Shown here: positions 3,890 to 62,215 of the stretch, piece by piece
How positions within the stretch are numbered: the stretch's first letter is position 1
Layout: every line of letters starts with the position of its first letter
Source: an uncultured Gammaproteobacteria bacterium
GTDB lineage: Bacteria; Patescibacteriota; Patescibacteriia; UBA9934
Length of the DNA: 64,000 nt
Assembly: GCA_964344415.1 (NCBI GenBank)
Contig: CAYFMS010000001.1
Span: forward strand, 100,214 to 164,213
Direction of reading: 5' to 3'
Translations under genes and position numbers: made by a program
Notes under the pieces: generated by a model
Database searches by the model: none
Told to the model about the DNA's origin: nothing
Seen by the model: the letters and a program-made list of their open reading frames with translations, nothing else

Positions 3890-5956
3890 TTATTGGCCCA
3901 GAAGTCTTTTCGCACGCTCGATCGTTACCTCCGCGTGCTCTTCAACTTCTCCCTTATCTGCATGCTCTGCAGATTGACCGCTTTCCCCCTCAACGTATTG
4001 TTCTACGCTCGGCGAAAGGTTTGACCAGACCACAAGCATGGCCAGCAATGCTGCCACATAGCCAGCAACCTGCACATCCGTTCGCTTGAGCAGCTTTCCG
4101 GAATAGTGCAGCGCAATCGACGCCGCGATCAGCACAGGGATGTACCACCAATGAAGCCATGTTCCATCGAAGAAACGTTGCACCACTGGGAAGCCCATAA
4201 CAACATGGATGCCGAAGATGAAACCCCAGAAGATAGCATTCGCACCTGCGACCCCCAGGATATTCACTTGGACCTGTTCCATATTTTTGCGCTCAGCCTT
4301 GTCCTTGTACAGTGCTGTCCAGAACCAGCCGGTAAGTTCGGCAGGAATAAGGATTGCACTGACAAGTACGAAGAAGAGAGCCGTATTGCTGCTCCATGCA
4401 TTCAGCTGGAAGTACATCGTCGACACAATCCACAGCCCCACCCACACAACAGTGTTAATGATGCCGCGAATCTTGGAACCAGGTCGCCACCGATAAAGGG
4501 GCGACACAGGTCTATCGATCGGGAACTCGAATCCGCCCAGCTTGCTGAGCTTGCCGATCAGAGATCCCTGTGTCTCGTCCCTCTTTGCCTCGGGTGCTGG
4601 TCCGCCGAGTACATTGAACAGAGGAATGACGATGATTACGAATGGCAACATGGCAAGGTTTCCCATCAACCATAGCAGCAATCCGTATTCCCAACTTTCC
4701 GCGCTCCACTCGAGCAGTGTGCCGAGTGTGTACGGGGCGGCATAGGCAAGCGTCGATGTAATCAATGACGCTCCAAGCAGTCCCGTGACGATCTGCGACG
4801 CAGCTCGTACACCCGGACGCGTTGCACGCCAACGAATCAACATCCCAACACCGAAACCAATGAAGGAAACGATCGGGATGATGGTGCTCGCAGCAACGTA
4901 GAGGTTTGGATATGGCGTTGGGAGCACCGATGTCAGTGCTCCCGTCACCACGTTGACCAGCCCCTCCGCGGCCATACCACCAAGAATACCAACCGCAAAC
5001 GCGACGATACTCAAGGCAATCGCAGCTGCATCTTCGCCGCTGGCGTCGAACCAATCATGCCATCCTTCTCGATCTTCCGGATCGGACAGCGGATCGAGTC
5101 CATCGAAGACCCATGCATATATGCGAGAAGAAATGCCGTATTTCTTCGAACGCTGCCCTGTCGCTTCACATGCATCGACGAAATCGATGAGCCTTCTGTT
5201 GTACAGGCTCATTAAGCGCTGCTTAGAGTCGTCCATGACTCTCCGCTCTTGTGCAGACAGAATGTCCTCACCTTGGCGCTGACCTTCCTCTGCCGATCCC
5301 CGTCTTCTCTCTGCATGTCGATCGCGTAATCGTCGATTCACGCCCTCGATATTGTTGAGGTCACGATGCGCACGATTGACTTCGTCTGCTGTCAGCTCCG
5401 GAAGTCGAGCAATGACTTTCGAGTTCTCTTCCATGGCGGCGGCCACATGTTGCAATGCAGCACGGCATCCACGAATCGGCAGCAAGTCCTGGTCACGAGC
5501 CGACCGCAACATGCGGCGCAGCAAGGCGAGCTCTGTATCCCGATTTGGAAGATCAGGAAGCGGCGGGTCTGGCGGGCTCCTCTCAGCATCGTCAGCCGGA
5601 TCAGAGTCATGCGAGTCCCTCGCCCTTTTGAGGTCGCGTCGGAGCCTGGATGCCCATCGTTCGCGGTCACGCTCATTCGCTTTCACGCGCCAAGCGCGCG
5701 CCACATCTTCGCTGAGCACCTCGAATGCCGAGATGATCACCGGACGGGCCCAAACAGGCACGCGAGGATGACTCCCAATGGTCTCACCAATCAGCTTCAG
5801 GGCGAAGCGATTCATGAATGTGTCCATGACCAGTCCTAAGACTTGCGTGGTCATGTCCATCACCTGCCGCTCTGACAGATCTGCTTCACCAGACGGAAGT
5901 CCAGTGAAGACCTTGTCGGTCAACCAATTGATGACTGTTTCTTTCGTTGGGTTCAT
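3890..5956 (-). CDS. hypothetical polytopic membrane protein: ~300-aa charged/coiled N-terminal cytoplasmic domain plus ~10 C-terminal TM helices; no family recognised
   Basis: 688-aa ORF with SD GGAGG 6 nt upstream. GC ~58% with G/C-ending codons, unlike the host. The N-terminus is Arg/Asp/Glu-rich (RRDLKRARDSHDSDPADDAERSPPDPP). Confidence 0.7.
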   Translation of the reverse strand: MNPTKETVINWLTDKVFTGLPSGEADLSERQVMDMTTQVLGLVMDTFMNRFALKLIGETIGSHPRVPVWARPVIISAFEVLSEDVARAWRVKANERDRERWASRLRRDLKRARDSHDSDPADDAERSPPDPPLPDLPNRDTELALLRRMLRSARDQDLLPIRGCRAALQHVAAAMEENSKVIARLPELTADEVNRAHRDLNNIEGVNRRLRDRHAERRRGSAEEGQRQGEDILSAQERRVMDDSKQRLMSLYNRRLIDFVDACEATGQRSKKYGISSRIYAWVFDGLDPLSDPEDREGWHDWFDASGEDAAAIALSIVAFAVGILGGMAAEGLVNVVTGALTSVLPTPYPNLYVAASTIIPIVSFIGFGVGMLIRWRATRPGVRAASQIVTGLLGASLITSTLAYAAPYTLGTLLEWSAESWEYGLLLWLMGNLAMLPFVIIVIPLFNVLGGPAPEAKRDETQGSLIGKLSKLGGFEFPIDRPVSPLYRWRPGSKIRGIINTVVWVGLWIVSTMYFQLNAWSSNTALFFVLVSAILIPAELTGWFWTALYKDKAERKNMEQVQVNILGVAGANAIFWGFIFGIHVVMGFPVVQRFFDGTWLHWWYIPVLIAASIALHYSGKLLKRTDVQVAGYVAALLAMLVVWSNLSPSVEQYVEGESGQSAEHADKGEVEEHAEVTIERAKRLLGQ

Positions 5957-6078
5957 GAGAACCTCCTATGAAGTTTGAAGTTTTGAAATTGTGTAGGTTC
6001 GATACCGGATTTTAACGATTTTACGCCAAATCCAGGCCACTTTTTATACCATAAAATGGGCTTTTTGTCAATCCAACC

Positions 6079-6116
6079 AATATCGGATATAAACAGGCCT
6101 ATTTTTATCCGATATT
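6079..6116. promoter_or_regulatory. 11-bp perfect inverted repeat (aatatcggata ... tatccgatatt), operator-like, in the divergent island promoter region
   Basis: Arms at 6079-6089 and 6106-6116 are exact reverse complements, separated by 16 nt. Confidence 0.4.
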
Positions 6117-6182
6117 AATCATTGATTTTATATCGAATATTTGATTTCTGGCTGGTTTTAGCCAAAAAATCAACAAAAAATA

Positions 6183-6211
6183 TTGACAAAAAGCTTAAAA
6201 AATGCTATAAA
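6183..6211 (+). promoter_or_regulatory. sigma70-type promoter (TTGACA-17-TATAAA) for the 6292-7559 operon
   Basis: TTGACA at 6183-6188, a 17-nt spacer, then TATAAA at 6206-6211 preceded by TGC. GGAGGT SD sits 7 nt before ATG 6292. Confidence 0.55.
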
Positions 6212-6291
6212 TGTTAGCCTAAGTATGCCTCTGCATGCAAAGGATTTGTTCTTTATCACCTGATTAAACCCTTACAGATTGGAGGTGCCAT

Positions 6292-6870
6292 ATGGCACGC
6301 ATGATGTTTTTCTTGATGGTCATCCTGACGAGTGCCTGCGCCAAGCAGGCAACCGTCCAGCCGATGATCGTGGAGGTCGTCAATCCCTGCCCAACGGGGT
6401 ATGAGCTGATGACCAGTTCGCGTGAGACGCGAAGCACCAACTATCGTTTCGGTAGTTGGTCAAGTGTCGGCGGCAATGGCCGCGAAACCGTCACGCGTCG
6501 CTGCGTGAAAGTTGCTCCTGTGGTGCAAACAGCACCTCAGCCTCCCGTCTTCGTCACCGCCGTGCCGTCCCATGTGGCGGCATATGAGGTGAACGTAGAA
6601 GAGTTGCAGCAGACGCAGTGGGCAATCATGGAAGAAGAGGTCGCCGTACAAAAACGTGCGCTTGAGATTTCCAAGAGCCGACGTGATGAGATTGCGCTGG
6701 CACTCGCGACGGCGAAGGATGACCTGGCTGCGGCAAGACGCCTTGGAGCGGACATACTTCGTAAAGCACGACGCGTCGCGTACCTCGAGGCGCTTCTGTC
6801 AGAGATGGCGGATGTCACGAATTCCTTGATCGATCAGATCGAGGCTGATCAGAATGGAGGTGTGAATTGA
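6292..6870 (+). CDS. hypothetical secreted protein or lipoprotein with a C-terminal coiled-coil
   Basis: Signal peptide MARMMFFLMVILTSAC followed by Cys. C-terminal heptad-like region EELQQTQWAIMEEEVAVQKRALEISKSRRDEIALALATAKDDLAAARR. GC-rich. Confidence 0.6.
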   Translation: MARMMFFLMVILTSACAKQATVQPMIVEVVNPCPTGYELMTSSRETRSTNYRFGSWSSVGGNGRETVTRRCVKVAPVVQTAPQPPVFVTAVPSHVAAYEVNVEELQQTQWAIMEEEVAVQKRALEISKSRRDEIALALATAKDDLAAARRLGADILRKARRVAYLEALLSEMADVTNSLIDQIEADQNGGVN

Positions 6871-7559
6871 TCACACTTTTCATCCTGATCGCGGCAGCTC
6901 TCGCGCAAACCGCTGGCTGGGGGCCTGGACATGATCCGCTCAGTCCACTCTCCGGATCGCATCTGACAGATGCGACACAGGAGTGGCCGGTCAATTCCTG
7001 CGTCATCGCAGGGATGCCGGAGGGACGCGGAAAACTCGTGTCCATCACCAACAGTTCAGGATCGACAGCGATTCTGACGGCGGTGAAACGGTACGAGACT
7101 CGCGAAGAGGTGGCTGACAATGTCTACCCACTCGCGGTCATGCGTCCCGGGCAGGCCATGGTCAGCGCCGCAATTCAGTGGGAAGAAGATGGCAGTCGCC
7201 GTCGATATCCACTGAAAAGTGGTGAAACCTGTTACATGCGCCTTCCTGCAGGGCGGTGGGTCATCGAGATGTGGGAAATCCCAAATCTCGACAGCACCCC
7301 ACCACCTGAGCGCATCATTGCCCGAGGCCATGCGTACATTCCGAATGGCCAAGGGGGATTGAAGCGCGTAGCGCAGCACCTTTCCTTCGACCGTACCCGT
7401 TACGGTAAGGAAGTGCGCTGGCATCAGGAAACGATTCACATCTCATCCCCTGTGGACGAGGTATGGATCGAGGCGCAGGTCATCCGGCAAATGACCAATC
7501 CTCGAGAGAGGATTCGCACGCCAGGGTTCACAATCGACCCACATGACTGGCGCAGCTAG
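6867..7559 (+). CDS. hypothetical secreted protein
   Basis: ATGA overlap with the upstream gene indicates translational coupling. Signal peptide MITLFILIAAALAQTAGWG. GC-rich. A terminator follows. Confidence 0.6.
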   Translation: MITLFILIAAALAQTAGWGPGHDPLSPLSGSHLTDATQEWPVNSCVIAGMPEGRGKLVSITNSSGSTAILTAVKRYETREEVADNVYPLAVMRPGQAMVSAAIQWEEDGSRRRYPLKSGETCYMRLPAGRWVIEMWEIPNLDSTPPPERIIARGHAYIPNGQGGLKRVAQHLSFDRTRYGKEVRWHQETIHISSPVDEVWIEAQVIRQMTNPRERIRTPGFTIDPHDWRS

Positions 7560-7577
7560 TCAGGTGGTTCGATATAA

Positions 7578-7612
7578 CCGATGCTACTCATACGGAGCGG
7601 CATCGGTTTTTT
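7578..7612 (+). terminator. Rho-independent terminator
   Basis: ccgatgc ... gcatcgg 7-bp stem followed by T6. Confidence 0.65.
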
Positions 7613-7614
7613 GC

Positions 7615-7646
7615 AACCAAAAAACAGGCATATGGCCTGTTTTTTA
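7615..7646. terminator. bidirectional terminator hairpin
   Basis: caggc-atatg-gcctg stem flanked by A6 and T6 runs. It also serves the minus-strand pilin array. Confidence 0.55.
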
Positions 7647-7652
7647 TTTTAC

Positions 7653-10012: not shown

Positions 10013-10574
10013 TTTGTGTATTTATTAAACTTCCCGCCGTGTCACCTCCAGTTGCGCGATCAATCGTTTCCTCGATGGTAGAATCTCCGCTTGGCAAGCT
10101 TCCTGTCGGTGATGTCAAAACACTAATGACAATATTCACAATGGCATAGGCGGACAATACAATCACAAGTCCAATGAATGCATCGCGCAGCGTATGAAGT
10201 CCTTTTTGAATTTTCGTTTGATTCCCTCCACTTGTGATCCAAGTTAGTCCACCAATGATAAAAACAAGCAAGAGAATACCTCCTGTTATTCCAAAGAGGA
10301 ATGTTTGAATGTTCACAGCAATTTGAAAGAGATCCTGAATGCTACATTTTCCCTTTTCATCACATTCCGTTGAGAGATTATAACGAATGAGTCCGCTTCT
10401 AATGAGCTGTGTAAAACGTGGTACCGTTACTGACTGTTCAATTTGATTCCCTGCGAGACCCGTTGTTGGTGGTGCTGTGACATCGGTTTGCGCATGGGCA
10501 TTTAAAGCGAAAAACAACAGCGAGCATAGTATGCTGACTAAAAAAATACGATATGTATAACGTATAAAACTCAT
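10005..10574 (-). CDS. TrbC/VirB2-family pilin-like protein (paralog 6, divergent)
   Basis: LTWITSGGNQTKIQKGLHTLRDAFIGLVIVLSAYAIVNI; signal peptide MSFIRYTYRIFLVSILCSLLFFALNAHA. Confidence 0.5.
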   Translation of the reverse strand: MSFIRYTYRIFLVSILCSLLFFALNAHAQTDVTAPPTTGLAGNQIEQSVTVPRFTQLIRSGLIRYNLSTECDEKGKCSIQDLFQIAVNIQTFLFGITGGILLLVFIIGGLTWITSGGNQTKIQKGLHTLRDAFIGLVIVLSAYAIVNIVISVLTSPTGSLPSGDSTIEETIDRATGGDTAGSLINTQNE

Positions 10575-10579
10575 CTGGA

Positions 10580-10860
10580 AATCATTATAGCGTAGATGGG
10601 TTGTCGGGAGTAGGGCATTGTTACGGATTTACGGATGGTGCGGATTATCGGTTGCACAGTTGACGACAAGTCTATTCGTGACTCATAAATAGACTTGTCG
10701 TCATCCCGAGCGAATGCGAGGGATCTCTCACAGTATCTGTTTATGTTTCATAAACCAAGATACCGTGTCATCCCGGACAGAGCGAAGCGGAGATCCGGGA
10801 TCCATCAGCAACCGTCATGCCGGATCTAGTCCGGCATCCCCTGTTTTTTTCTTCTTACTT
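10580..10860. repeat. copy of the dispersed modular repeat family (modules gatttacggatggt, cagttgacgacaagtct plus nested hairpin, and the gtcatccc...38-mer) with a terminal hairpin and T-run
   Basis: The 14-mer at 10626-10639 is identical to 16024-16037. The 38-mer at 10781-10818 is identical to 61738-61775. A 14-bp perfect IR, gacgacaagtctat/atagacttgtcgtc, lies at 10663-10703. Hairpin gccggatctagtccggc at 10819-10835. Confidence 0.65.
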
Positions 10861-10879
10861 TTCTTTAAAGAAAAGTAAG
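10854..10879. repeat. 26-bp perfect palindrome cttacttttctttaaagaaaagtaag
   Basis: The 13+13 arms are exact reverse complements. Confidence 0.8.
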
Positions 10880-10936
10880 CAAAAGAACGCCGCCAGTGCT
10901 CGCTTTGTCACATGCATAGAGCGTCATCGCTCGGGC

Positions 10937-11008
10937 AAAACAGAGAGTAGGAATGTCCTTATTTTTCTTGATACAATCATGCGTTCATTCCTATCGGCTG
11001 TTTTGCAA
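10937..11008. repeat. interrupted ~20-bp inverted repeat (gcaaaacag-agag-taggaatg ... cattccta-tcgg-ctgttttgc)
   Basis: Both arm segments are exact reverse complements, separated by a ~30-nt loop. Confidence 0.6.
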
Positions 11009-19862: not shown

Positions 19863-20258
19863 ATGGAAATATCAGCGCATTACAGCGCATACCCACAAAA
19901 AACGCTTATTGCCGTTACAAATAATCACTTGGCGCGACTGCTGTGCGCCAATGATCGCTTGATCGAAGAAATTGAGAGCATCGAGATTGGGTCTGATGAC
20001 GATGTGAATGAAAGGCAAAATGATGCCGAACAGCAACAAGATCGAGAGAATTTGTATGAACGGCTCAATAAACGACTTTTGAAGCTTGCGCCAGATTATG
20101 AACGTATTCTGATTTGCATGCCCGAGGCGCTTAAAGGTGACATTCTTGCATCGCTCGATGCCTCTCTTGAAGAAAAAATGAGCGAAGTCATTCCAAAAAA
20201 TCTTGCATCATTAGAACTGGACGCCATTGTGCGCATTCTGGACGAAAGTCATACATAG
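19863..20258 (+). CDS. hypothetical acidic protein
   Basis: 131-aa ORF. TGgTATAAT at 19846-19854 lies 8 nt before the ATG, suggesting a leaderless mRNA. A terminator follows. Confidence 0.5.
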   Translation: MEISAHYSAYPQKTLIAVTNNHLARLLCANDRLIEEIESIEIGSDDDVNERQNDAEQQQDRENLYERLNKRLLKLAPDYERILICMPEALKGDILASLDASLEEKMSEVIPKNLASLELDAIVRILDESHT

Positions 20259-20286
20259 AACCGAGGCCATAAAACCTCGGTTTTTA
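20259..20286 (+). terminator. Rho-independent terminator
   Basis: ccgagg-ccataaaa-cctcgg followed by T5. Confidence 0.65.
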
Positions 20287-20377
20287 ATTAATTTCGATTC
20301 CCTCGCAAGCCAGTCAACCGGCTTGCTCAAGTTCCTCGTCCATGAAAAAAGACCACCTTTCGGTGATCCATTTTTCA

Positions 20378-20452
20378 TGGAGGCCAGAGCGGGAATCGAA
20401 CCCGCGCGTCGAGGTTTTGCAGACCCCTGCGTTACCACTTCGCCACCTGGCC
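20378..20452 (-). tRNA. tRNA-Cys (GCA)
   Basis: Cloverleaf folded by hand: acceptor GGCCAGG/TCTGGCC, anticodon loop CTGCAAA, T-arm GCGGG-TTCGATT-CCCGC, CCA encoded. A long hairpin follows the 3' end. Confidence 0.8.
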
Positions 20453-20496
20453 AGGTGCAGCGATGGTAACAGATTCAGGACTAAGAATCAAGGCGA

Positions 20497-20964
20497 TTAC
20501 TCAATCGTAACAGCCTGCGCGGACAAGATAACTTCTTCAACAGACTGCCCTGCGCTCCCTTGCATGATGATTTTAAACTGATACTTCCCCGTTTCGGTTT
20601 CAAGATAGTAATTTTCATCACTTTCTTTGAAGAATCCATTTCCAAGGTCTTCAGCTTCGGAAGGAATAATGCGCCGATCGTCGAGTCTCAAAACGCGAAT
20701 ATGCGCGAAGTCATTTGGCGTATACTCACCGTCCACTTTTTGAATGGCATTCACCGTGCTTTGCAAAACAATGTCATCCATTTCACGATTCACATCAAGC
20801 GAAAATGAATCGGGGCTTTCACTTGTAAGGTCATAAGCGGATGCCATTGCCCAGTCAGTCGGCAAATCAAATGCAAGCCACCAGTCGCCCTCAACGCTTT
20901 TACCGCCAAGACATCCCGCACCAATAAGAAGTAATCCAAGAACAGAAAAAATGATGTTTTTCAT
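20497..20964 (-). CDS. hypothetical lipoprotein
   Basis: MKNIIFSVLGLLLIGAGC lipobox-like signal; 155 aa. Confidence 0.55.
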   Translation of the reverse strand: MKNIIFSVLGLLLIGAGCLGGKSVEGDWWLAFDLPTDWAMASAYDLTSESPDSFSLDVNREMDDIVLQSTVNAIQKVDGEYTPNDFAHIRVLRLDDRRIIPSEAEDLGNGFFKESDENYYLETETGKYQFKIIMQGSAGQSVEEVILSAQAVTIE

Positions 20965-39439: not shown

Positions 39440-39560
39440 AGTTTTTATTCTAGCGATTGTCTTAGCAATGCATGCTCATTCGCATAGCCATGGCAATCGT
39501 GTTAATTACAGGGTCAAAATAGCTCATTTGTCTGTTTTTGTCAATAAAATACCGCCTATA

Positions 39561-39593
39561 AAAAAAGAAGACCGTCAGCGAGTGCTGACGGTC
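39561..39593 (-). terminator. Rho-independent terminator (minus strand)
   Basis: gaccgtcagc-gagt-gctgacggtc perfect 10-bp stem followed on the minus strand by cuucuuuuuuu. Confidence 0.7.
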
Positions 39594-39861
39594 AACGTGT
39601 AGATCAGAATGCGAACAAAACGAATCGCATTCGGGGGTCCGCGTGCCCAATTCATCTCTTCCTCCTTGGTCACCGCGCGGCCTCATGCAGCGCGGTGTCT
39701 AGGGGTCGCCGTCGGTGCTGTTTCAGCGATAATCACTGGTGGACGCGTGCAGGTGAATCAAGGTTCACCTCCCATTTTTGAATGTTTTTCCCTATGTCGC
39801 GACCCCTCAACTATATGAGGCCTGACATTCTCGACTTCGGGCTTTCACTGTCGAGGCACGC
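39594..39861 (-). ncRNA. candidate ~290-nt structured ncRNA of unknown class
   Basis: Has its own promoter and terminator. A 7-bp closing helix GCGUGCC/GGCACGC, at least six internal perfect 6-10-bp helices, and a long-range GGGGUCGC/GCGACCCC pairing. GC ~57%. Confidence 0.4.
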
Positions 39862-39890
39862 AATGTAACACAAATTTCAGTATTTGTCAA
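39862..39890 (-). promoter_or_regulatory. sigma70-like promoter (TTGACA-17-TACATT) on the minus strand
   Basis: Minus-strand TTGACA corresponds to 39885-39890 and TACATT to 39862-39867. Confidence 0.45.
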
Positions 39891-40160
39891 GAGCATGCAC
39901 GGTATATTTGGCTAATATTAGGTAAAAAAAGAACGCCCGAAGGCGTAGAGTGGATGCATGATTCGTCGAGAGTAGGATCAGGAGATGTTTTCGACGGAAT
40001 GACCATCATCGGTCAACTTGCCGCCGTCACACAGGGATCCTCTTTCGCCGATTTGCTTCGAAATGACGTCGATATTCATGACGTACTCCTTTGTTGTCAT
40101 GTGCTGTGAGTATAGGTTGAAAGACCTCTTTCGTAAAGAAGTGTCGTATAATGTATATGT

Positions 40161-41075
40161 ATGGCGCAAAATCAGTTAGGGAAACTTATAAAACAATTTC
40201 TGGAATACCTCGAAATCGAACGTGGCCGCAGTATGCGTACGGTCAGAAATTATCACTTTTATTTAAATAGATTCGCTGAATTTGCCGGACATCCGCACCC
40301 GTCAAAGATTTCGCAGGACATCGTTCGGAAATTTCGTTTATTTTTGAATAGGGATTTAGAAGGTCGTGACGATGTAAATTTAAAAAAGTCTACGCAGAAT
40401 TATCATTTGATCGCACTTCGTTCATTTTTAAAATATTTGCAAAAAATTGATATCAAAACACTTGCGCCCGAAAAAATAGAGCTTGCAAAGCATGGGACGA
40501 GGCAGGTTGAGGTTCTTGATGAGGATGAACTCGATCGTTTACGGGAAGCTCCACTTGAATCGGGTGGGATCATCGGTAAAAGAGATAAGGCAATAATTGA
40601 AATGCTCTTTTCGACAGGTTTGCGTGTTTCTGAGCTTGCGAATTTAAAAATCGATGACGTCAACCTAAAAAAAGATGAATTTACCGTTCGGGGTAAAGGG
40701 TCGAAGCATAGAGTTGTTTTTCTTTCTGATCAGGCGAAAAAATCGGTCAAAGAGTACCTTGAAGCGCGAAAGGATATGTCACCACATTTATTTGTGAGCC
40801 ATGATCGAGCAAAAAAGCATCGCGAACCCCTTCCCCTTTCAGCGCGCAGCGTTCAGCGTGTTATTGAAAGAGCTGCGTCTATTGCAGGAATTACAAAGAA
40901 AGTGACGCCGCATGTGCTGCGACATACATTCGCAACGGATTTACTGCATAATGGAGCTGATATTCGAAGCGTGCAGTCTATGCTTGGCCATGAATCGATT
41001 ACGACGACACAGGTGTATACGCATGTAACCGATAAACAGCTGCATGAAATTCATAAAAAGTTTCATGATAGGTAG
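40161..41075 (+). CDS. xerC: tyrosine recombinase XerC/XerD family
   Basis: C-terminal HVLRHTFATDLLHNGADIRSVQSMLGHESITTTQVYTHV with the RHRY catalytic residues. Confidence 0.8.
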   Translation: MAQNQLGKLIKQFLEYLEIERGRSMRTVRNYHFYLNRFAEFAGHPHPSKISQDIVRKFRLFLNRDLEGRDDVNLKKSTQNYHLIALRSFLKYLQKIDIKTLAPEKIELAKHGTRQVEVLDEDELDRLREAPLESGGIIGKRDKAIIEMLFSTGLRVSELANLKIDDVNLKKDEFTVRGKGSKHRVVFLSDQAKKSVKEYLEARKDMSPHLFVSHDRAKKHREPLPLSARSVQRVIERAASIAGITKKVTPHVLRHTFATDLLHNGADIRSVQSMLGHESITTTQVYTHVTDKQLHEIHKKFHDR

Positions 41076-41174
41076 GCTGATCATCAGATCATCTTCGATA
41101 TTTCCGACTTCTGAAGCGATCAACTCATAAGTCGGTTATATAAAATACCCCAGTCTTCAGACTGAGGCATTTTA

Positions 41175-41250
41175 TGGGGCGGCTAACGGGAATCGAACCC
41201 GTAATAGAGGTACCACAAACCCCTGTGATAACCGTTTCACCATAGCCGCC
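41175..41250 (-). tRNA. tRNA-His (GTG) with encoded G-1 and CCA
   Basis: Hand-folded: G-1 pairs with discriminator C; acceptor GCGGCTA/TAGCCGC; anticodon loop TTGTGGT; T-arm CGGGTTCGATTCCCG. Confidence 0.85.
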
Positions 41251-41477: not shown

Positions 41478-42509
41478 ATGGAAAGGCATATCGTACCCTT
41501 TGAAGGCATTGTGCCGGAAAAGGTTTCACACTCGAGGCCTAGCGGCCTCATGGAGACATACAATATGTTTACTTCTTCGCTCATCCCCTCGTTCACGATG
41601 GATGTCAATTCGGGTAACTTCAAGGTGATCAGTGACGCTCTGCCGCAGATCGTTCCGCAGCCCGGCGCTTTGCGTCGGATCGCGTTCGACATCGACAAGG
41701 GCCGGCTCTCCCTCACCGAGCTCGAGGCTCCGAAGGCGGATGGGATGCTCGACGTGATCAACGTCGTCGAACTCGGCATCACCGACGATCAGAAGCGGGT
41801 CTTCATCGTGACGACGCAGACCGGCAACCTGATTCAGGGCGACAAGTTCGTCGACAATGCCGCCAAGCTGTCGCTGCAGAAGCTCGCGACCGGTTGCGCG
41901 GCGATGATGGATGGTGCCGACCTGAACATCGGCATCAACGTGAACACCGAAGCGATGAAGCTGATCGGTCGTCAGAGCGGAACGCGCCTCGACGCCATCG
42001 GCAACAACTGGTCGAGCTTCATGCTGACCGTCGACCTCGGCACCGGACAGATCGTCGACTTCGAGAACATGGGACACATGTCGGTGATGAAGGACTTCGT
42101 GACCGACGACTTCACCATCCTCGACGGGCTGCGCTTCCAGAAGGTGACGAACGACGAGATCCTCGCCGCCATCGACAATGGCCGCGACCTCATCGACCTG
42201 TTCGATGAGAACCGGTTCGTGAAGATCAACGACGATGTGCCGCACATGCTCATGCGCGGCATCGACGGCAAGGTCCTGACCACCGACGGTCTCGGAACCA
42301 CGGTGTTCAAGTGGGACGATGCGTCCGGCGACTTCCAGACCGGGAATGTCGACGGAATCCTGCACTCGGCGCTCGACGTCGACGGCATGATCGACAACAA
42401 CAGGTTCGTGAAGATCGAGGGCAGCCCCTACGACAACACGCTGCAGTCGATCCCGCTCGGCTTCGACGAACTGCCGGTCGACGCGAAGAACCAGTTCTCG
42501 CAGGCCTAG
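41478..42509 (+). CDS. hypothetical protein, GC-rich orphan (~58% GC) with internal repeats
   Basis: 343-aa ORF with repeated DENRFVKINDDV / DNNRFVKIEGS / DGILHSALDVDGMID motifs. No signal peptide. Many overlapping spurious ORFs on both strands are typical of high GC. Confidence 0.55.
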   Translation: MERHIVPFEGIVPEKVSHSRPSGLMETYNMFTSSLIPSFTMDVNSGNFKVISDALPQIVPQPGALRRIAFDIDKGRLSLTELEAPKADGMLDVINVVELGITDDQKRVFIVTTQTGNLIQGDKFVDNAAKLSLQKLATGCAAMMDGADLNIGINVNTEAMKLIGRQSGTRLDAIGNNWSSFMLTVDLGTGQIVDFENMGHMSVMKDFVTDDFTILDGLRFQKVTNDEILAAIDNGRDLIDLFDENRFVKINDDVPHMLMRGIDGKVLTTDGLGTTVFKWDDASGDFQTGNVDGILHSALDVDGMIDNNRFVKIEGSPYDNTLQSIPLGFDELPVDAKNQFSQA

Positions 42510-42595
42510 GTCTGCGTCCCGGAACAATGAACATCTCGTACACCTAGCGACTTCCATCGCTATGGATGAGTCAATGGTGTTCAAATGTTCCCTCT

Positions 42596-42634
42596 CTGCT
42601 CCCCCATTGCTTCGGCAGTGGCGGGAGCTTTTTT
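42596..42634 (+). terminator. Rho-independent terminator
   Basis: gctcccccattgc ... gcagtggcgggagc imperfect stem followed by T6. Confidence 0.5.
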
Positions 42635-42995
42635 GTATTGACATGTTTGCATTTTTACGGTATGAATGATCTATCTAGTTGTGAGAGAGGGTGTGCGCCT
42701 CCTTAAAATTCACAATGCGATCCCCTCTTCCATCTCCCACGAGATGCATAATCGTATTGTGGCGGTAGATATACCGTATGCAGTGGCTTTGGTGCTGGTG
42801 CATTGGCTACCTCGAATCTGTCAGACGAGGCGTGGTGGAACCAGCCTGACATGGTAAGGTAGCGATATCGTTGGTCACGTGATAACCAGGCGCGCCCGGG
42901 ACGCTTTCCTGCGCTCGAGCGTCTCGGGCGCGCTTCACTCATCGCCAATCGGCGATTCTTTTTTTATTTTGCTAAAAAACGTAAGATGAAGGCGT

Positions 42996-45500
42996 ATGAA
43001 AAAAGATCTCTTTCTTGTTCTCGATGGAAATGCATTACTTCACCGTGCTTGGCATGCCATTCCACCCCTTACAACGGCCGATGGACGTGTTGTAAATGCT
43101 GTTTATGGCTTCACAAATGTCATTGAAAAAATGCTCGACAAATATCAGCCAAATTATATGGCGGTGGCTTGGGATTTACCGGGGAAAACATTCCGTCATG
43201 ATGCTTATGCTGATTACAAAGGGACAAGAAAGAAAAAAGAGCCTGAACTTTATGATCAAATCCCCATGATTCAGGAAGTGCTTGATGGTTATGGCATCCC
43301 CTCTCTTTCTGCGGAAGGTATGGAGGCAGACGATGTGATTGGAACGCTTGCAAGTATCTATGGGCCGATGAAGGAAACAAAAATGCTCATCGTGACAGGA
43401 GATTTAGATGCTTTGCAGCTCGTGAACAAAGATGTAGCGGTTCTTATTTTTGTGAAAGGTCTTTCTCAGACGAAGATTTATGACGAGAAAGCAGTGAAAG
43501 ATCGATATGAATTGCGTCCGGATCAGTTGATTGATTTGAAAGCGCTCATGGGCGATTCATCTGACAATATTCCTGGTATTGCGGGTGTTGGCCAGAAGAC
43601 GGCAACGGAGCTTCTTAAGGAGCATGGGTCTATTGATGAAATATTTAGGGCAATTGAGGACGGTATTGTTCCGGAAAAATTTGCAAAAAAATTCCGGGGG
43701 AAAGAAGATGAAGTGAAAGCAATGACGCATCTTGTGACCATTGTTAGGGATATTGATTTGGGTGGATTCAAAGCGGAAGATGCGACCATGTCAGAACCAG
43801 ATTCAAAAAAATTAACAGCATTATTTAAAGATTTAGAATTTAAAACGCTTCTTTTCAAATATCAGGATGAAAAGAAGGATGCACCGAGTGCCAAAACGGT
43901 TAAGCGTGGCATGATTGAGGGCAAAATTGGTGGGAATACGGCATATGTCCACCTTGCAGAAGAAGATATTACTCTATTTGATGGGTCCGTGTATCAAAAA
44001 GTGGATGAAGCAGAAGCGAAAACTATTTTGAAAGGGAAGAAAAAAATCATCGGTCATAATTTGAAACAAGCCATGCATCAATTGGATATGGTTTTTGATG
44101 CAGATCTCTTCGATGTCATGGTTGCAGGTTATCTCATTGATTCTTCTATGCGCGATTTAAGCTTGGAAGCTCTTGCAGATTCATATTTGAGCAAGTCTAT
44201 TGAAGCATTCGATAGCGAGCTCGCGGCTCTTTCTGAATTGCATAAAGTCTTTGAGGATAGAATGAAAGAAGATGGACTTGAAAAGGTGATGTATGAGATT
44301 GAAATGCCCGTATTGCCTGTTCTGTATCGCATGGAAAAAGCAGGAATAGCCACGGACAAGGCGCATCTTGATCATCTATCTAAAACATTCAATGAGCAGC
44401 TGCAATCGCTTACAAAGCGTATCCACAAACTTGCAGGGCGAGATTTCAATATTAACTCCCCTTCCCAACTTGCTGAGATTCTGTTCGAAGACTTGGGACT
44501 TTCAACAAAGCGAATTAAAAAAACAAAAACAGGTTTTTCAACGGCTGCTTCTGAATTAGAAAAGATGTGGGATACACATGAGATCGTTCCTCTTATTAGC
44601 GAATATCGTGAGCTTGCGAAGCTTAAATCAACCTATGCGGACGCATTGCCGAAATTGATTCAGGATGATGGGAGAATTCATACGAGTTTCAATCAAACGG
44701 TTGCAGCAACGGGACGTTTATCATCTTCTGACCCAAATTTGCAGAATATTCCAATACGAACAGACCTTGGTAATGAAATCCGACGTGCCTTTATTGCGCC
44801 GAAGGGCAAGGTGCTTCTTGCAGCCGACTATTCCCAGTTCGAACTTCGTTTAGCAGCCGATATTTCGCGTGATAAAGAGCTGCTCGATGCTTTTAAGGAC
44901 GGAGCTGACATTCATACGAGAACGGCGGCTAAAATTTTCGGGAAAGGTGATGATGAAGTCACGCGTAATGATCGTCGTATGGCAAAGGCTGTTAATTTTG
45001 GGATTTTATATGGCATGGGATCGCGCAGCCTTGGGAAATCTGTCGGTATAAAACAGACAGAAGCTAAGGAATTTATTGAACGTTACTTTGAATTGCATCC
45101 CGGATTGCGTAGTTACATGGACGAAATGAAGTTGAAGGCTCATGCAAATGAATATATTGAAACGGAATTTGGTCGACGAAGGTATTTACCAGATATTAAT
45201 TCAGGCGTGCAAATGCTTGTTGCGGCTGCAGAACGCATGGCAATTAATATGCCAATTCAAGGGACGCAGGCTGACCTTGTAAAAATGGCGATGATTCAAG
45301 TGCAGGAATGGATTGATAAAAATGAGATACCAGTCAAAATGCTTTTACAGGTTCATGATGAGCTTGTATTTGAAATCGATGCAGAACATGCTGATGCCGT
45401 AATGAAGCAGATTGTTAATATTATGGAATCTGTTTGGGATGGAGAGGTTCCGTTGATTGTGAATGCAAATCTTGGTGATAATTGGGGTGATTTGAAATAA
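42996..45500 (+). CDS. polA: DNA polymerase I
   Basis: 5'-3' exonuclease N-terminus, family-A polymerase motifs (DYSQFELR; RRMAKAVNFGILYG; QVHDELVFE). Confidence 0.95.
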   Translation: MKKDLFLVLDGNALLHRAWHAIPPLTTADGRVVNAVYGFTNVIEKMLDKYQPNYMAVAWDLPGKTFRHDAYADYKGTRKKKEPELYDQIPMIQEVLDGYGIPSLSAEGMEADDVIGTLASIYGPMKETKMLIVTGDLDALQLVNKDVAVLIFVKGLSQTKIYDEKAVKDRYELRPDQLIDLKALMGDSSDNIPGIAGVGQKTATELLKEHGSIDEIFRAIEDGIVPEKFAKKFRGKEDEVKAMTHLVTIVRDIDLGGFKAEDATMSEPDSKKLTALFKDLEFKTLLFKYQDEKKDAPSAKTVKRGMIEGKIGGNTAYVHLAEEDITLFDGSVYQKVDEAEAKTILKGKKKIIGHNLKQAMHQLDMVFDADLFDVMVAGYLIDSSMRDLSLEALADSYLSKSIEAFDSELAALSELHKVFEDRMKEDGLEKVMYEIEMPVLPVLYRMEKAGIATDKAHLDHLSKTFNEQLQSLTKRIHKLAGRDFNINSPSQLAEILFEDLGLSTKRIKKTKTGFSTAASELEKMWDTHEIVPLISEYRELAKLKSTYADALPKLIQDDGRIHTSFNQTVAATGRLSSSDPNLQNIPIRTDLGNEIRRAFIAPKGKVLLAADYSQFELRLAADISRDKELLDAFKDGADIHTRTAAKIFGKGDDEVTRNDRRMAKAVNFGILYGMGSRSLGKSVGIKQTEAKEFIERYFELHPGLRSYMDEMKLKAHANEYIETEFGRRRYLPDINSGVQMLVAAAERMAINMPIQGTQADLVKMAMIQVQEWIDKNEIPVKMLLQVHDELVFEIDAEHADAVMKQIVNIMESVWDGEVPLIVNANLGDNWGDLK

Positions 45501-46840: not shown

Positions 46841-46905
46841 CACTTCCCTGTTTTCTCGGTAAACTCCTGTCGTCCCTTTTATAACATGCTCATAAATGGA
46901 TATTT

Positions 46906-47175
46906 ATGCCAAATTTGGCAAATGCAAAGAAAGCTCTTCGAGCAAGTGCGAAGCGTGCGGAGCGAAATCGATTGATTCGAGAAGAGATTAGCTCACTTCG
47001 TCGGCATTTTCGAAAGGCTGTCGAAAGTAATGATTTCGATGAAGCGAAGAAAATGATGCCAACGTTAGACAAAAAACTTGATAAGTCTGTAACGAAAAAT
47101 GTCTTTAAAAAGAATAAAGTTGCACGAATCAAGGCACGACTAGCAGCATCACTCAAAAGAGCTGAAGCAAAATAA
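46906..47175 (+). CDS. rpsT: 30S ribosomal protein S20
   Basis: MPNLANAKKALRASAKRAERNR S20 signature. Confidence 0.9.
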   Translation: MPNLANAKKALRASAKRAERNRLIREEISSLRRHFRKAVESNDFDEAKKMMPTLDKKLDKSVTKNVFKKNKVARIKARLAASLKRAEAK

Positions 47176-47200
47176 AATGACCCATTTGGGTCATTTTATT
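47171..47200. terminator. bidirectional Rho-independent terminator
   Basis: aaatgaccca-tt-tgggtcattt perfect stem flanked by A and T runs. Confidence 0.7.
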
Positions 47201-61557: not shown

Positions 61558-61860
61558 AGGACCAGTAAGTAGTTAGTAGAAAATAGTAAGTAGGTTACCG
61601 TTACAGATGTACTGATAGTACAGATATACGGATTTATGTGCGAAGGAGATTTAGGAGATTGGAGAGATTCTAGTCGCGCAGTTGACGATAAGTCTGTTTG
61701 TGAGTCACAAACCAAGATTTATCGTCATCCCAGACGAAGCGAAGCGGAGATCCGGGATCCATCAGCAACCGTCATCCCGAGCCCTGCCTGCCGGCAGGCA
61801 GGGCATCCCTTGCAAAGGATCCTTCGACAGGTTCAGAACTTTGATCAAGTTCATAAGTGA
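61558..61860. repeat. most complete copy of the dispersed modular intergenic repeat family, ending in a 22-bp perfect palindrome
   Basis: The 18-mer at 61565-61582 equals 3656-3673. atacggattta...gcgaaggag module. Nested hairpins at 61686-61728. The 38-mer at 61738-61775 equals 10781-10818. Palindrome ccctgcctgcc/ggcaggcaggg at 61782-61803. Confidence 0.7.
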
Positions 61861-61861
61861 T

Positions 61862-61891
61862 AAAAAAAACCGCCTAGCTTTCGCTAGGCGG
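61862..61891 (-). terminator. Rho-independent terminator (minus strand)
   Basis: ccgcctagc-tttc-gctaggcgg 9-bp stem; the minus-strand T8 run corresponds to 61862-61869. Confidence 0.7.
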
Positions 61892-61978
61892 GAATTCAGC
61901 CAGAAGGCTGATGGCGATGATGACGAAGGCGGCATAGCCGACCCACATCATGATGAGATCAAGAATGAATTGCATCAT
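61874..61978 (-). CDS. small hydrophobic peptide (33-34 aa, single TM), GC-rich
   Basis: MMQFILDLIMMWVGYAAFVIIAISLLAEFPPSES. ATGA overlap with the upstream small ORF. Stop codon lies within the terminator stem. Confidence 0.45.
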   Translation of the reverse strand: MMQFILDLIMMWVGYAAFVIIAISLLAEFPPSES

Positions 61979-62145
61979 TCGATTCTCTCGCTGATTTGGA
62001 TCTCCTCCTCATACTCGAGCCATGACCCGAGAATGATGCTTGCCACTCCGATGGCACCGGCGGTCGGCCAGATGAGAATCTCCCACCAGGCCATGCTTGC
62101 GATGGTCTCGGGAAGAAGCTCACAAAAGGTATAGAAGTCGATCAT
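61975..62145 (-). CDS. small membrane protein (56 aa, single TM, acidic C-terminus), GC-rich
   Basis: MIDFYTFCELLPETIASMAWWEILIWPTAGAIGVASIILGSWLEYEEEIQISERIE. GGAGG SD 5 nt upstream; consensus promoter upstream. Confidence 0.5.
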   Translation of the reverse strand: MIDFYTFCELLPETIASMAWWEILIWPTAGAIGVASIILGSWLEYEEEIQISERIE

Positions 62146-62186: not shown

Positions 62187-62215
62187 TTTATAGCATAAAA
62201 CAAGGATTTTGTCAA
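62187..62215 (-). promoter_or_regulatory. consensus sigma70 promoter (TTGACA-17-TATAAA, minus strand) for the small-peptide operon
   Basis: Minus-strand TTGACA corresponds to 62210-62215 and TATAAA to 62187-62192, preceded by TGC. The same TTGACAAAA...ATGCTATAAA layout is seen at 6183-6211. Confidence 0.55.

Follow-up and report, generated by a model that had tools for sequence, protein, structure and literature searches.

A putative structured RNA unit with a short open reading frame between xer and rpsO in an uncultured member of the Patescibacteria

Does the region immediately upstream of rpsO in this genome specify an RNA of its own and, if so, is that RNA a messenger for a very small protein, a controlling element of the operon which follows it, or a non-coding RNA? 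The original prediction saw a self-contained unit at this place, bounded by a promoter, a terminator and a helix joining its two ends, and proposed that it might be a stable non-coding RNA, a leader-peptide attenuator or a dual-function sRNA. All coordinates below refer to the window, that is, the whole stretch of 64,000 nucleotides which was analysed.

The transcription signals of the element are all on the minus strand. The promoter scan recovered the predicted TTGACA-17-TACATT promoter (39890–39862; -35 TTGACA 39890–39885, -10 TACATT 39867–39862) with a score of 10/12, and a TG ahead of the -10 hexamer classifies it as an extended -10 promoter. Its architecture matches that of the conserved rpsO promoter and that of a small-protein unit beginning at 62215. 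At the other end the terminator scan located an intrinsic terminator (39593–39560), with a 10-bp stem containing seven GC pairs (39593–39570), a 4-nt loop and a U-run, UUCUUUUUUU. The rpsO promoter follows, as had been claimed for a strong 10-bp terminator placed directly before it. Near the 3′ end of the element a Shine-Dalgarno (SD) sequence, AAGGAGG (39667–39661), is followed after a gap of 5 nt by an AUG at 39655, which opens a 26-codon ORF (MNWARGPPNAIRFVRILIYTLTVSTR; 39655–39575 including the stop). The stop codon (39577–39575) falls within the 3′ arm of the terminator stem, and the description of an SD-led ORF ending inside the terminator was therefore accurate. From base frequencies we estimate that an SD, a 5-nt spacing, an AUG and 26 open codons would occur together by chance in 300 nt in less than about 1% of cases. 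The G+C content across 39861–39633 is 0.57, in agreement with the ~57% originally given, as against some 0.42–0.45 nearby. These signals suggest that the element is most likely an independently transcribed RNA of about 290 nt, which would run from approximately 39855 to the terminator at 39593–39560.

The position of the 5′ end bears upon the helix that was thought to close the structure. Its arms, GCGUGCC (39861–39855) and GGCACGC (39647–39641), are some 210–220 nt apart; the ~250 nt first reported should read about 210 nt. The 5′ arm begins one base past the -10 hexamer. Judged by its sequence the host genome appears to be largely leaderless: an SD-like motif accompanies only 3 of 40 long ORFs in the window, many of the long ORFs are leaderless, and in the leaderless genes the ATG is found 7–10 nt past the -10 (a TATAAT-like box 6–9 nt before the ATG). 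Since leaderless ATGs occupy this position, transcription of the element would be expected to start at 39855–39852, with the GCGUGCC arm upstream of or at the start. The 5′ arm is for this reason probably absent from the RNA, and given this spacing between -10 and start the proposed closing helix GCGUGCC/GGCACGC is probably not formed, its 5′ arm being untranscribed.

Outside the element, and again on the minus strand, the conserved rpsO promoter (39544–39516) and a structured rpsO 5′ leader together occupy 39544–39440. Relatives which do not possess the element retain both the rpsO promoter and the 5′ UTR. In an alignment of the 5′ UTR (39509–39440) from 43 Patescibacteria sequences (relatives L083–L154), nine of the 13 pairs display compensatory changes, 88% of cells are paired vs 35–49% with the partners slid, and the observed covariation score was reached by 0 of 500 shuffles. 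The structure carries an apical loop, UGAGC, and a near-invariant G-U stacked on a G-C, which is the classical S15 recognition motif. No Rfam match was found for the structure, and within the clade it may be regarded as a candidate leader for autoregulation by S15. This structure lies 3′ of the rpsO promoter, apart from the element. Since both promoter and leader of rpsO persist in relatives where the element is missing, the element is independent of rpsO. Thus, of the self-contained unit originally described, the promoter, the terminator and the independence from rpsO stand, and the closing helix does not. We also considered whether the element might be an S15 decoy; upon inspection, the order of G-U and G-C in the hairpin at 39822–39801 is reversed relative to the S15 motif, and this candidate was rejected.

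The many perfect helices and the long-range pairing which had been predicted are all present in the sequence. They comprise CUCGAC/GUCGAG, AGGUGAA/UUCACCU, CACCGCGC/GCGCGGUG, GAAUGCGA/UCGCAUUC, the terminator, and a 9-bp perfect long-range complementarity between AGGGGUCGC (39807–39799) and GCGACCCCU (39709–39701). An additional 8-bp complementarity, missing from the original prediction, joins GGCCUCAU (39822–39815) with AUGAGGCC. Folding places CUCGAC/GUCGAG in a 5′-terminal hairpin with a 14-nt loop (H1, 39855–39830), followed by H2/H3 (39828–39794; AUGUC/GACAU and GGCCUC/GGGGUC), which holds a string resembling RNase P CR-I, and by H4 (39770–39751; AGGUGAA/UUCACCU). Hairpin H6 (39697–39671) is formed by CACCGCGC and GCGCGGUG and presents AUGAGGCC in its loop, while H7 (39632–39607), formed by GAAUGCGA and UCGCAUUC, lies within the ORF. 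The segment at 39747–39728 is the 5′ strand of a long imperfect helix (CGCGU/ACGCG, CCAGU/AUUGG, UUAUC/GAUGA) with 39656–39640, which covers the AUG and codons 2–5. As a result of these pairings 55 of the 78 nt of the ORF are within predicted helices. The segment GCGACCCCU (39709–39701) acts as the anti-SD in these folds: its partner is either the SD (closed) or AGGGGUCGC (39807–39799; open), the latter being the 3′ half of H2/H3.

Which of these alternatives is preferred depends upon the 5′ end. With the first 229 nt folded from 39861, the closing helix forms with a probability of 0.88 and the long-range helix with 0.72, and the SD is mostly open. If the RNA begins at 39857 or 39855, a different fold dominates the ensemble: CCCCU at 39705–39701 takes up the SD (p 0.8–0.99), and the AUG and codons 2–5 pair with 39747–39728, such that the AUG is unpaired with a probability of 0.13–0.25. 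The predicted switch derives from the thermodynamic folding of a single sequence, and moving the presumed 5′ end by 4 nt alters its balance.

Relative to dinucleotide shuffles the minimum free energy (MFE) of the element as first delimited corresponds to z = -4.66; this becomes -3.6 with a realistic 5′ end, -3.6 for the leader only and -2.8 without the terminator. As background we used 159 non-overlapping windows of 300 nt, with sampled shuffles and an MFE-versus-GC regression. The background z has a mean of -0.33 and a standard deviation of 1.53, and only 3.8% of these windows reach z ≤ -3.9, all of them tRNA regions or further intergenic loci. The element sits in this structured tail (top 4%), yet it is not the strongest member: at least six other regions fold more strongly, with z of -5 to -9.6 near 6000–6300, 6950–7500, 10500–10950, 20100–20550, 40900–41200, 42700–43000 and 61700–62050.

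This survey also brought to light several structured regions elsewhere in the window. Those at 5950–6300, 6800–7650, 46900–47200 and 42700–43000 (z -4.7 to -7.5) have no above-threshold match in Rfam. A hairpin-rich repeat is present in two minus-strand copies (about 10660–10840 and 61700–61800), which share ...ATGACGGTTGCTGATGGATCCCGGATCTCCGCTTCGCT...GGGATGAC...GTCAACTG; both copies have z of -5 to -9.6 and no Rfam match, and they could be copies of one structured RNA or of a miniature mobile element. Just upstream of tRNA-Arg/His there is a stretch of ~1.1 kb (41478–42644) with a GC content of 0.60 vs a background of 0.42–0.45 and with long ORFs on both strands. Its plus-strand frame of 343 aa has a protein-like look (D/N/G-rich) and no NCBIfam match; the source annotation chose the minus-strand frame.

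The host is placed in the Patescibacteria by its PNPase, the best matches of which (50–55% identity) are to Uhrbacteria, Magasanikbacteria and Falkowbacteria MAGs. In a cluster look-up covering 15 billion proteins, all five of the neighbouring proteins that were found are singletons at 90% identity, and no sister species is therefore available in public data. The nearest relatives (S15 81–84%, NYN 74–79% and Xer 75–84% identity) have the same arrangement of genes, namely tRNA-Arg/His, xer (divergent), rpsO, NYN and pnp. The element and a neighbouring small unit are both missing from them, and their xer-rpsO spacers measure 127 nt (L086) and 318 nt (L083) vs 721 nt in the window.

Searches of 169 fetched loci by nhmmer and blastn yielded no homologue of the element, nor did a covariance model of 229 positions and 53 pairs in 164 loci (~1.4 Mb); its best scores (9.9 and 12.3 bits) came from the outer closing helix, by itself or accompanied by a single short hairpin. 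Phage and plasmid collections (blastn), and viral contigs and JGI metagenomes scanned with a back-translated pseudo-protein, gave no match to the element. Its open antisense frame has no relative among 5.8 billion proteins, and comparison with the SD-led small peptides in the spacers of relatives revealed no homologue. The conservation in related genomes that the original prediction proposed to look for was thus sought, and none was found. The Rfam search which it also proposed assigned no family to the element: Rfam 15 gave no match there when the whole window was scanned at gathering thresholds, and no relevant match at E ≤ 10 on 801 nt or, with lax filters, on 237 nt. The terminator and a single hairpin gave some matches, but these were noise below the threshold.

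The spacer itself is hypervariable. Among 80 further loci there are approximately 35 in which a divergent xer still precedes rpsO, with spacers of 123–2388 nt. Those of L087 and L092 contain SD-led ORFs of ~90–100 aa, that of L129 an SD-led 35-aa membrane peptide, and those of L119 and L122 GC-rich units of ~300 nt (z about -3.1 to -3.2) without a convincing ORF and with strong terminators just before the rpsO promoter. By blastn each of these units matches its own lineage only. The xer-rpsO spacer (window 39557–40160; L083, L087, L092, L098, L101, L107, L119, L122, L129 and others) may be an insertion hot spot. The recombinase beside it is a single Xer-type gene which scores as XerA/XerC/XerD type, and upon this score the candidate of an integron integrase was rejected.

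Within the same insertion as the element there is a second orphan unit (40137–39925, minus strand), for which the scans gave a promoter TTTACG-17-TATACT, an SD AAGGAG, a 33-codon ORF MNIDVISKQIGERGSLCDGGKLTDDGHSVENIS and a terminator at 39946–39933. The terminator hairpin of this neighbour is complementary at 13 of 15 positions to the loop of H1, an agreement for which we estimate a chance probability of ~0.1. In place of this unit the gene caller had reported, at 39925–40137, an ORF of 51 aa on the other strand, which in a search of 5.8 billion proteins matched only itself.

Based upon these results we tentatively read the element as specific to its lineage and as either the mRNA of a cationic peptide of 26 residues or a dual-function RNA which encodes it, with a 200-nt leader predicted to pair with both the SD and the AUG, and we put the probability of this reading at about 0.4. 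It is favoured because the combination of SD, spacing, AUG and open frame is unlikely by chance, and because the same anatomy recurs at 62215–61870. This latter unit, also on the minus strand, has a TTGACA/extended -10 promoter, an SD GAGGAGG and overlapping hydrophobic ORFs of 56 and 34 aa, which are membrane-peptide ORFs, and its last stop codon is inside the terminator stem. SD-led small ORFs occupy the xer-rpsO spacer of relatives as well, and because the genome is compact one would not expect it to carry some 600 nt of junk. The sequence signals, the thermodynamic preference of the fold, the independence from rpsO and the absence from relatives were obtained directly. Counted against a peptide mRNA are the shortness of the ORF and its location mostly in helices, such that it could be fortuitous inside a non-coding RNA; the fact that most genes here are leaderless and without an SD; and the want of a homologue, and hence of covariation, codon conservation or any sign of selection.

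If the element is a small-peptide mRNA or dual-function RNA, its control might operate as follows. In the closed state, which would be the default, the GC-rich leader of 200 nt would pair the SD with CCCCU at 39705–39701, and the AUG and codons 2–5 would be held by 39747–39728. In the open state the 9-bp helix between AGGGGUCGC (39807–39799) and GCGACCCCU (39709–39701) would free the ribosome-binding site. A factor or processing event which disrupts the hairpin at 39828–39794 would then switch translation on.

Among the three interpretations first offered, the dual-function sRNA is the best fit. The sequence signals provide the promoter and terminator of its own which such an RNA should have. 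Known dual-function sRNAs, such as Staphylococcus aureus RNAIII/hld, Bacillus subtilis SR1/SR1P and Escherichia coli SgrS/SgrT, likewise have an independent promoter and terminator and are highly structured RNAs with an SD-led small ORF, a likeness which for the element is predicted from its sequence. The hld gene of RNAIII has 26 codons and specifies an amphipathic peptide. The element has no homology to these RNAs and, unlike them, no established target complementarity.

A possible, though in our opinion doubtful, alternative is that the element is purely non-coding, whether as an sRNA which acts in trans or binds a protein or as a stable structured RNA; the SD-like purine run would then be no more than one of the strands of a helix, and the ORF a coincidence. 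Its GC enrichment and strong folding would be expected of such a molecule, a 5′-terminal hairpin together with a terminator is typical of stable sRNAs, and the ORF is largely buried in helices. Moreover, a frame of 26 codons would remain open after a given ATG in about 29% of cases by chance, and the spacers of L119 and L122 hold GC-rich, terminator-ended units for which no convincing ORF could be recognised. However, a perfect AAGGAGG at the optimal distance from an ATG is unlikely to arise by chance, there is neither an Rfam match nor any conservation to show selection upon the structure, and ~290 nt is long for a base-pairing sRNA.

It is unlikely that the element is a decaying or neutral insertion, for example a remnant of mobile or foreign DNA, the signals of which would be relics or duplicates of those of rpsO. 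The element is absent from all relatives and resides in a spacer which is a hot spot for unrelated lineage-specific sequences and adjoins the Xer-type recombinase gene, and its GC content differs from that of the genome. A stretch of 30 nt in its promoter region shares 70% identity with the rpsO promoter, and the T-runs behind both terminators are identical; these similarities hint at duplication during insertion. Against this, the -35, extended -10, SD, spacing and 10-bp terminator are all intact and near-consensus, the genome is compact and, with a contig of 768 kb, small, the searches of phage, plasmid, viral and metagenome DNA yielded no match, and no terminal inverted repeats were found.

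One might also propose that the element is a stable, translationally inert mRNA for a small membrane-active peptide, comparable to the toxin mRNAs of type I toxin-antitoxin systems; we judge this rather improbable, and no less so its extension, namely that control of the mRNA falls to an RNA which is antisense or in part complementary to it and which might be the neighbouring unit at 40137–39925. The tisB, shoB, zorO and dinQ mRNAs are ~300 nt in length, with a leader of ~200 nt, a sequestered ribosome-binding site and an ORF of 26–29 codons near the 3′ end. The anatomy of the element (~300 nt, a 200-nt leader, a sequestered ribosome-binding site and a 26-codon ORF near the 3′ end) fits this description, the occlusion of the ribosome-binding site which characterises type I toxin mRNAs being found here by prediction (SD paired with p 0.8–0.99; AUG unpaired with p 0.13–0.25). 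As in the long-leader toxin mRNAs of enterobacteria, the SD and start codon are predicted to be occluded, and an intrinsic terminator closes the transcript. The cationic peptide has a hydrophobic core, the element is confined to its lineage and to a variable spacer, and the 13/15 complementarity between the terminator hairpin of the neighbour and the H1 loop would supply a candidate antitoxin.

Against a toxin, the peptide has a net charge of +4, and its best 15-residue Kyte-Doolittle value is 1.44 vs 2.64 for TisB and 2.89 for ShoB, such that it is only weakly hydrophobic beside them. There are two arginines in its core, and it is neither clearly membrane-spanning nor otherwise recognisable. 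The plus strand between 39400 and 39900 contains no antisense promoter above the scan threshold, and the 13/15 match, with its estimated chance of ~0.1, is near chance level. There is no family match and no homologue. Unlike the enterobacterial mRNAs, then, the element lacks an identified antitoxin RNA, bears no sequence or family relationship to them, and belongs to a Patescibacteria host.

The leader-peptide attenuator of the original prediction now appears very unlikely. According to this proposal a ribosome upon the 26-codon ORF would block the terminator and so allow read-through into rpsO-NYN-pnp, and, with as little probability, the structured leader would decide whether the ORF is translated. 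In the E. coli pyrBI leader the ORF crosses the terminator, and a translating ribosome blocks termination. The element is similar in that its small ORF passes through the terminator hairpin, with the stop at 39577–39575 in the 3′ arm as in leader ORFs of the pyrBI type; in addition, it is directly 5′ of the rpsO operon on the same strand, and the sequestration of its SD and AUG is predicted to be conditional. The overlap of ORF and terminator is the part of the claim which holds. The difference from pyrBI is that the downstream gene, rpsO, possesses its own promoter and covarying leader of the autoregulatory type, both of which are kept in 40 or more relatives that lack the element; the closest relatives, with spacers of 127–318 nt, lack it as well. 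Furthermore, neither a pause site nor antiterminator logic is evident, no antiterminator which could replace the terminator stem came to light, and stops within terminator stems are common among small genes here.

There is likewise little probability that the spacer beside the single Xer-type recombinase gene is an integration hot spot of this clade (for example, a dif-like site) which captures self-contained miniature cassettes, every one of them with its own promoter and terminator around an SD-led small ORF or a structured RNA. The element would be one such cassette, in which a riboswitch-like leader would gate the translation of the 26-residue peptide.

The suggestion of a resemblance to the CR-I region of RNase P RNA was not borne out. 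The element shares with bacterial RNase P RNAs (RF00010/RF00011, including the CPR forms of PMC8172020) the character of a GC-rich stand-alone RNA gene and a 12/17 match to the CR-I consensus; unlike them it is too short and has no covariance-model match, CR-V, P4 or specificity domain. The RF00010 and RF00011 models gave no match at gathering thresholds, nor at E ≤ 10 (801 nt; 237 nt with lax filters). By inspection P4 is absent, ACCAAGGAGGAAGAGAUGAAUUG precedes the 3′ arm with no CR-V (ACAGAA..GGCUUA), the CR-I-like string is predicted to pair locally in the hairpin at 39828–39794, and the span of ~210–220 nt is too small for bacterial RNase P. As to tmRNA, ARAGORN reported four tRNAs only in the window and nothing at the element, and there was no Rfam tmRNA match. 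The element does possess a promoter and a terminator of its own, GC enrichment and part of a CR-I-like string, and CPR RNase P RNAs can be so diverged that they score under the thresholds of Rfam (PMC8172020). It is nevertheless extremely improbable that the element is a housekeeping RNA (RNase P RNA, tmRNA, SRP RNA or 6S RNA) which has diverged too far for the standard models, given that no RNase P, SRP, 6S or tmRNA model matched at E ≤ 10 (237 nt, lax filters), that ARAGORN found no tmRNA, that CR-V for P4 is wanting and the ~210–220-nt span too small, and that the element is absent from this site in relatives, with no homologue found by the covariance model in 164 loci.

The element is an orphan of a single genome, and its value is that of a candidate and not of a discovery. 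The regulatory RNAs and small proteins of the candidate-phyla-radiation bacteria are almost unknown. Because such genomes are tiny, a lineage-specific insert of 600 nt with near-consensus signals probably does something. Were the cassette proposal true, ultra-small genomes would contain mobile small-gene modules of a new kind. If the element is expressed, it would be a leadered, SD-dependent and structure-gated small gene within an otherwise leaderless genome, and the variable xer-rpsO spacer would be a place in which to seek accessory small genes in this clade.
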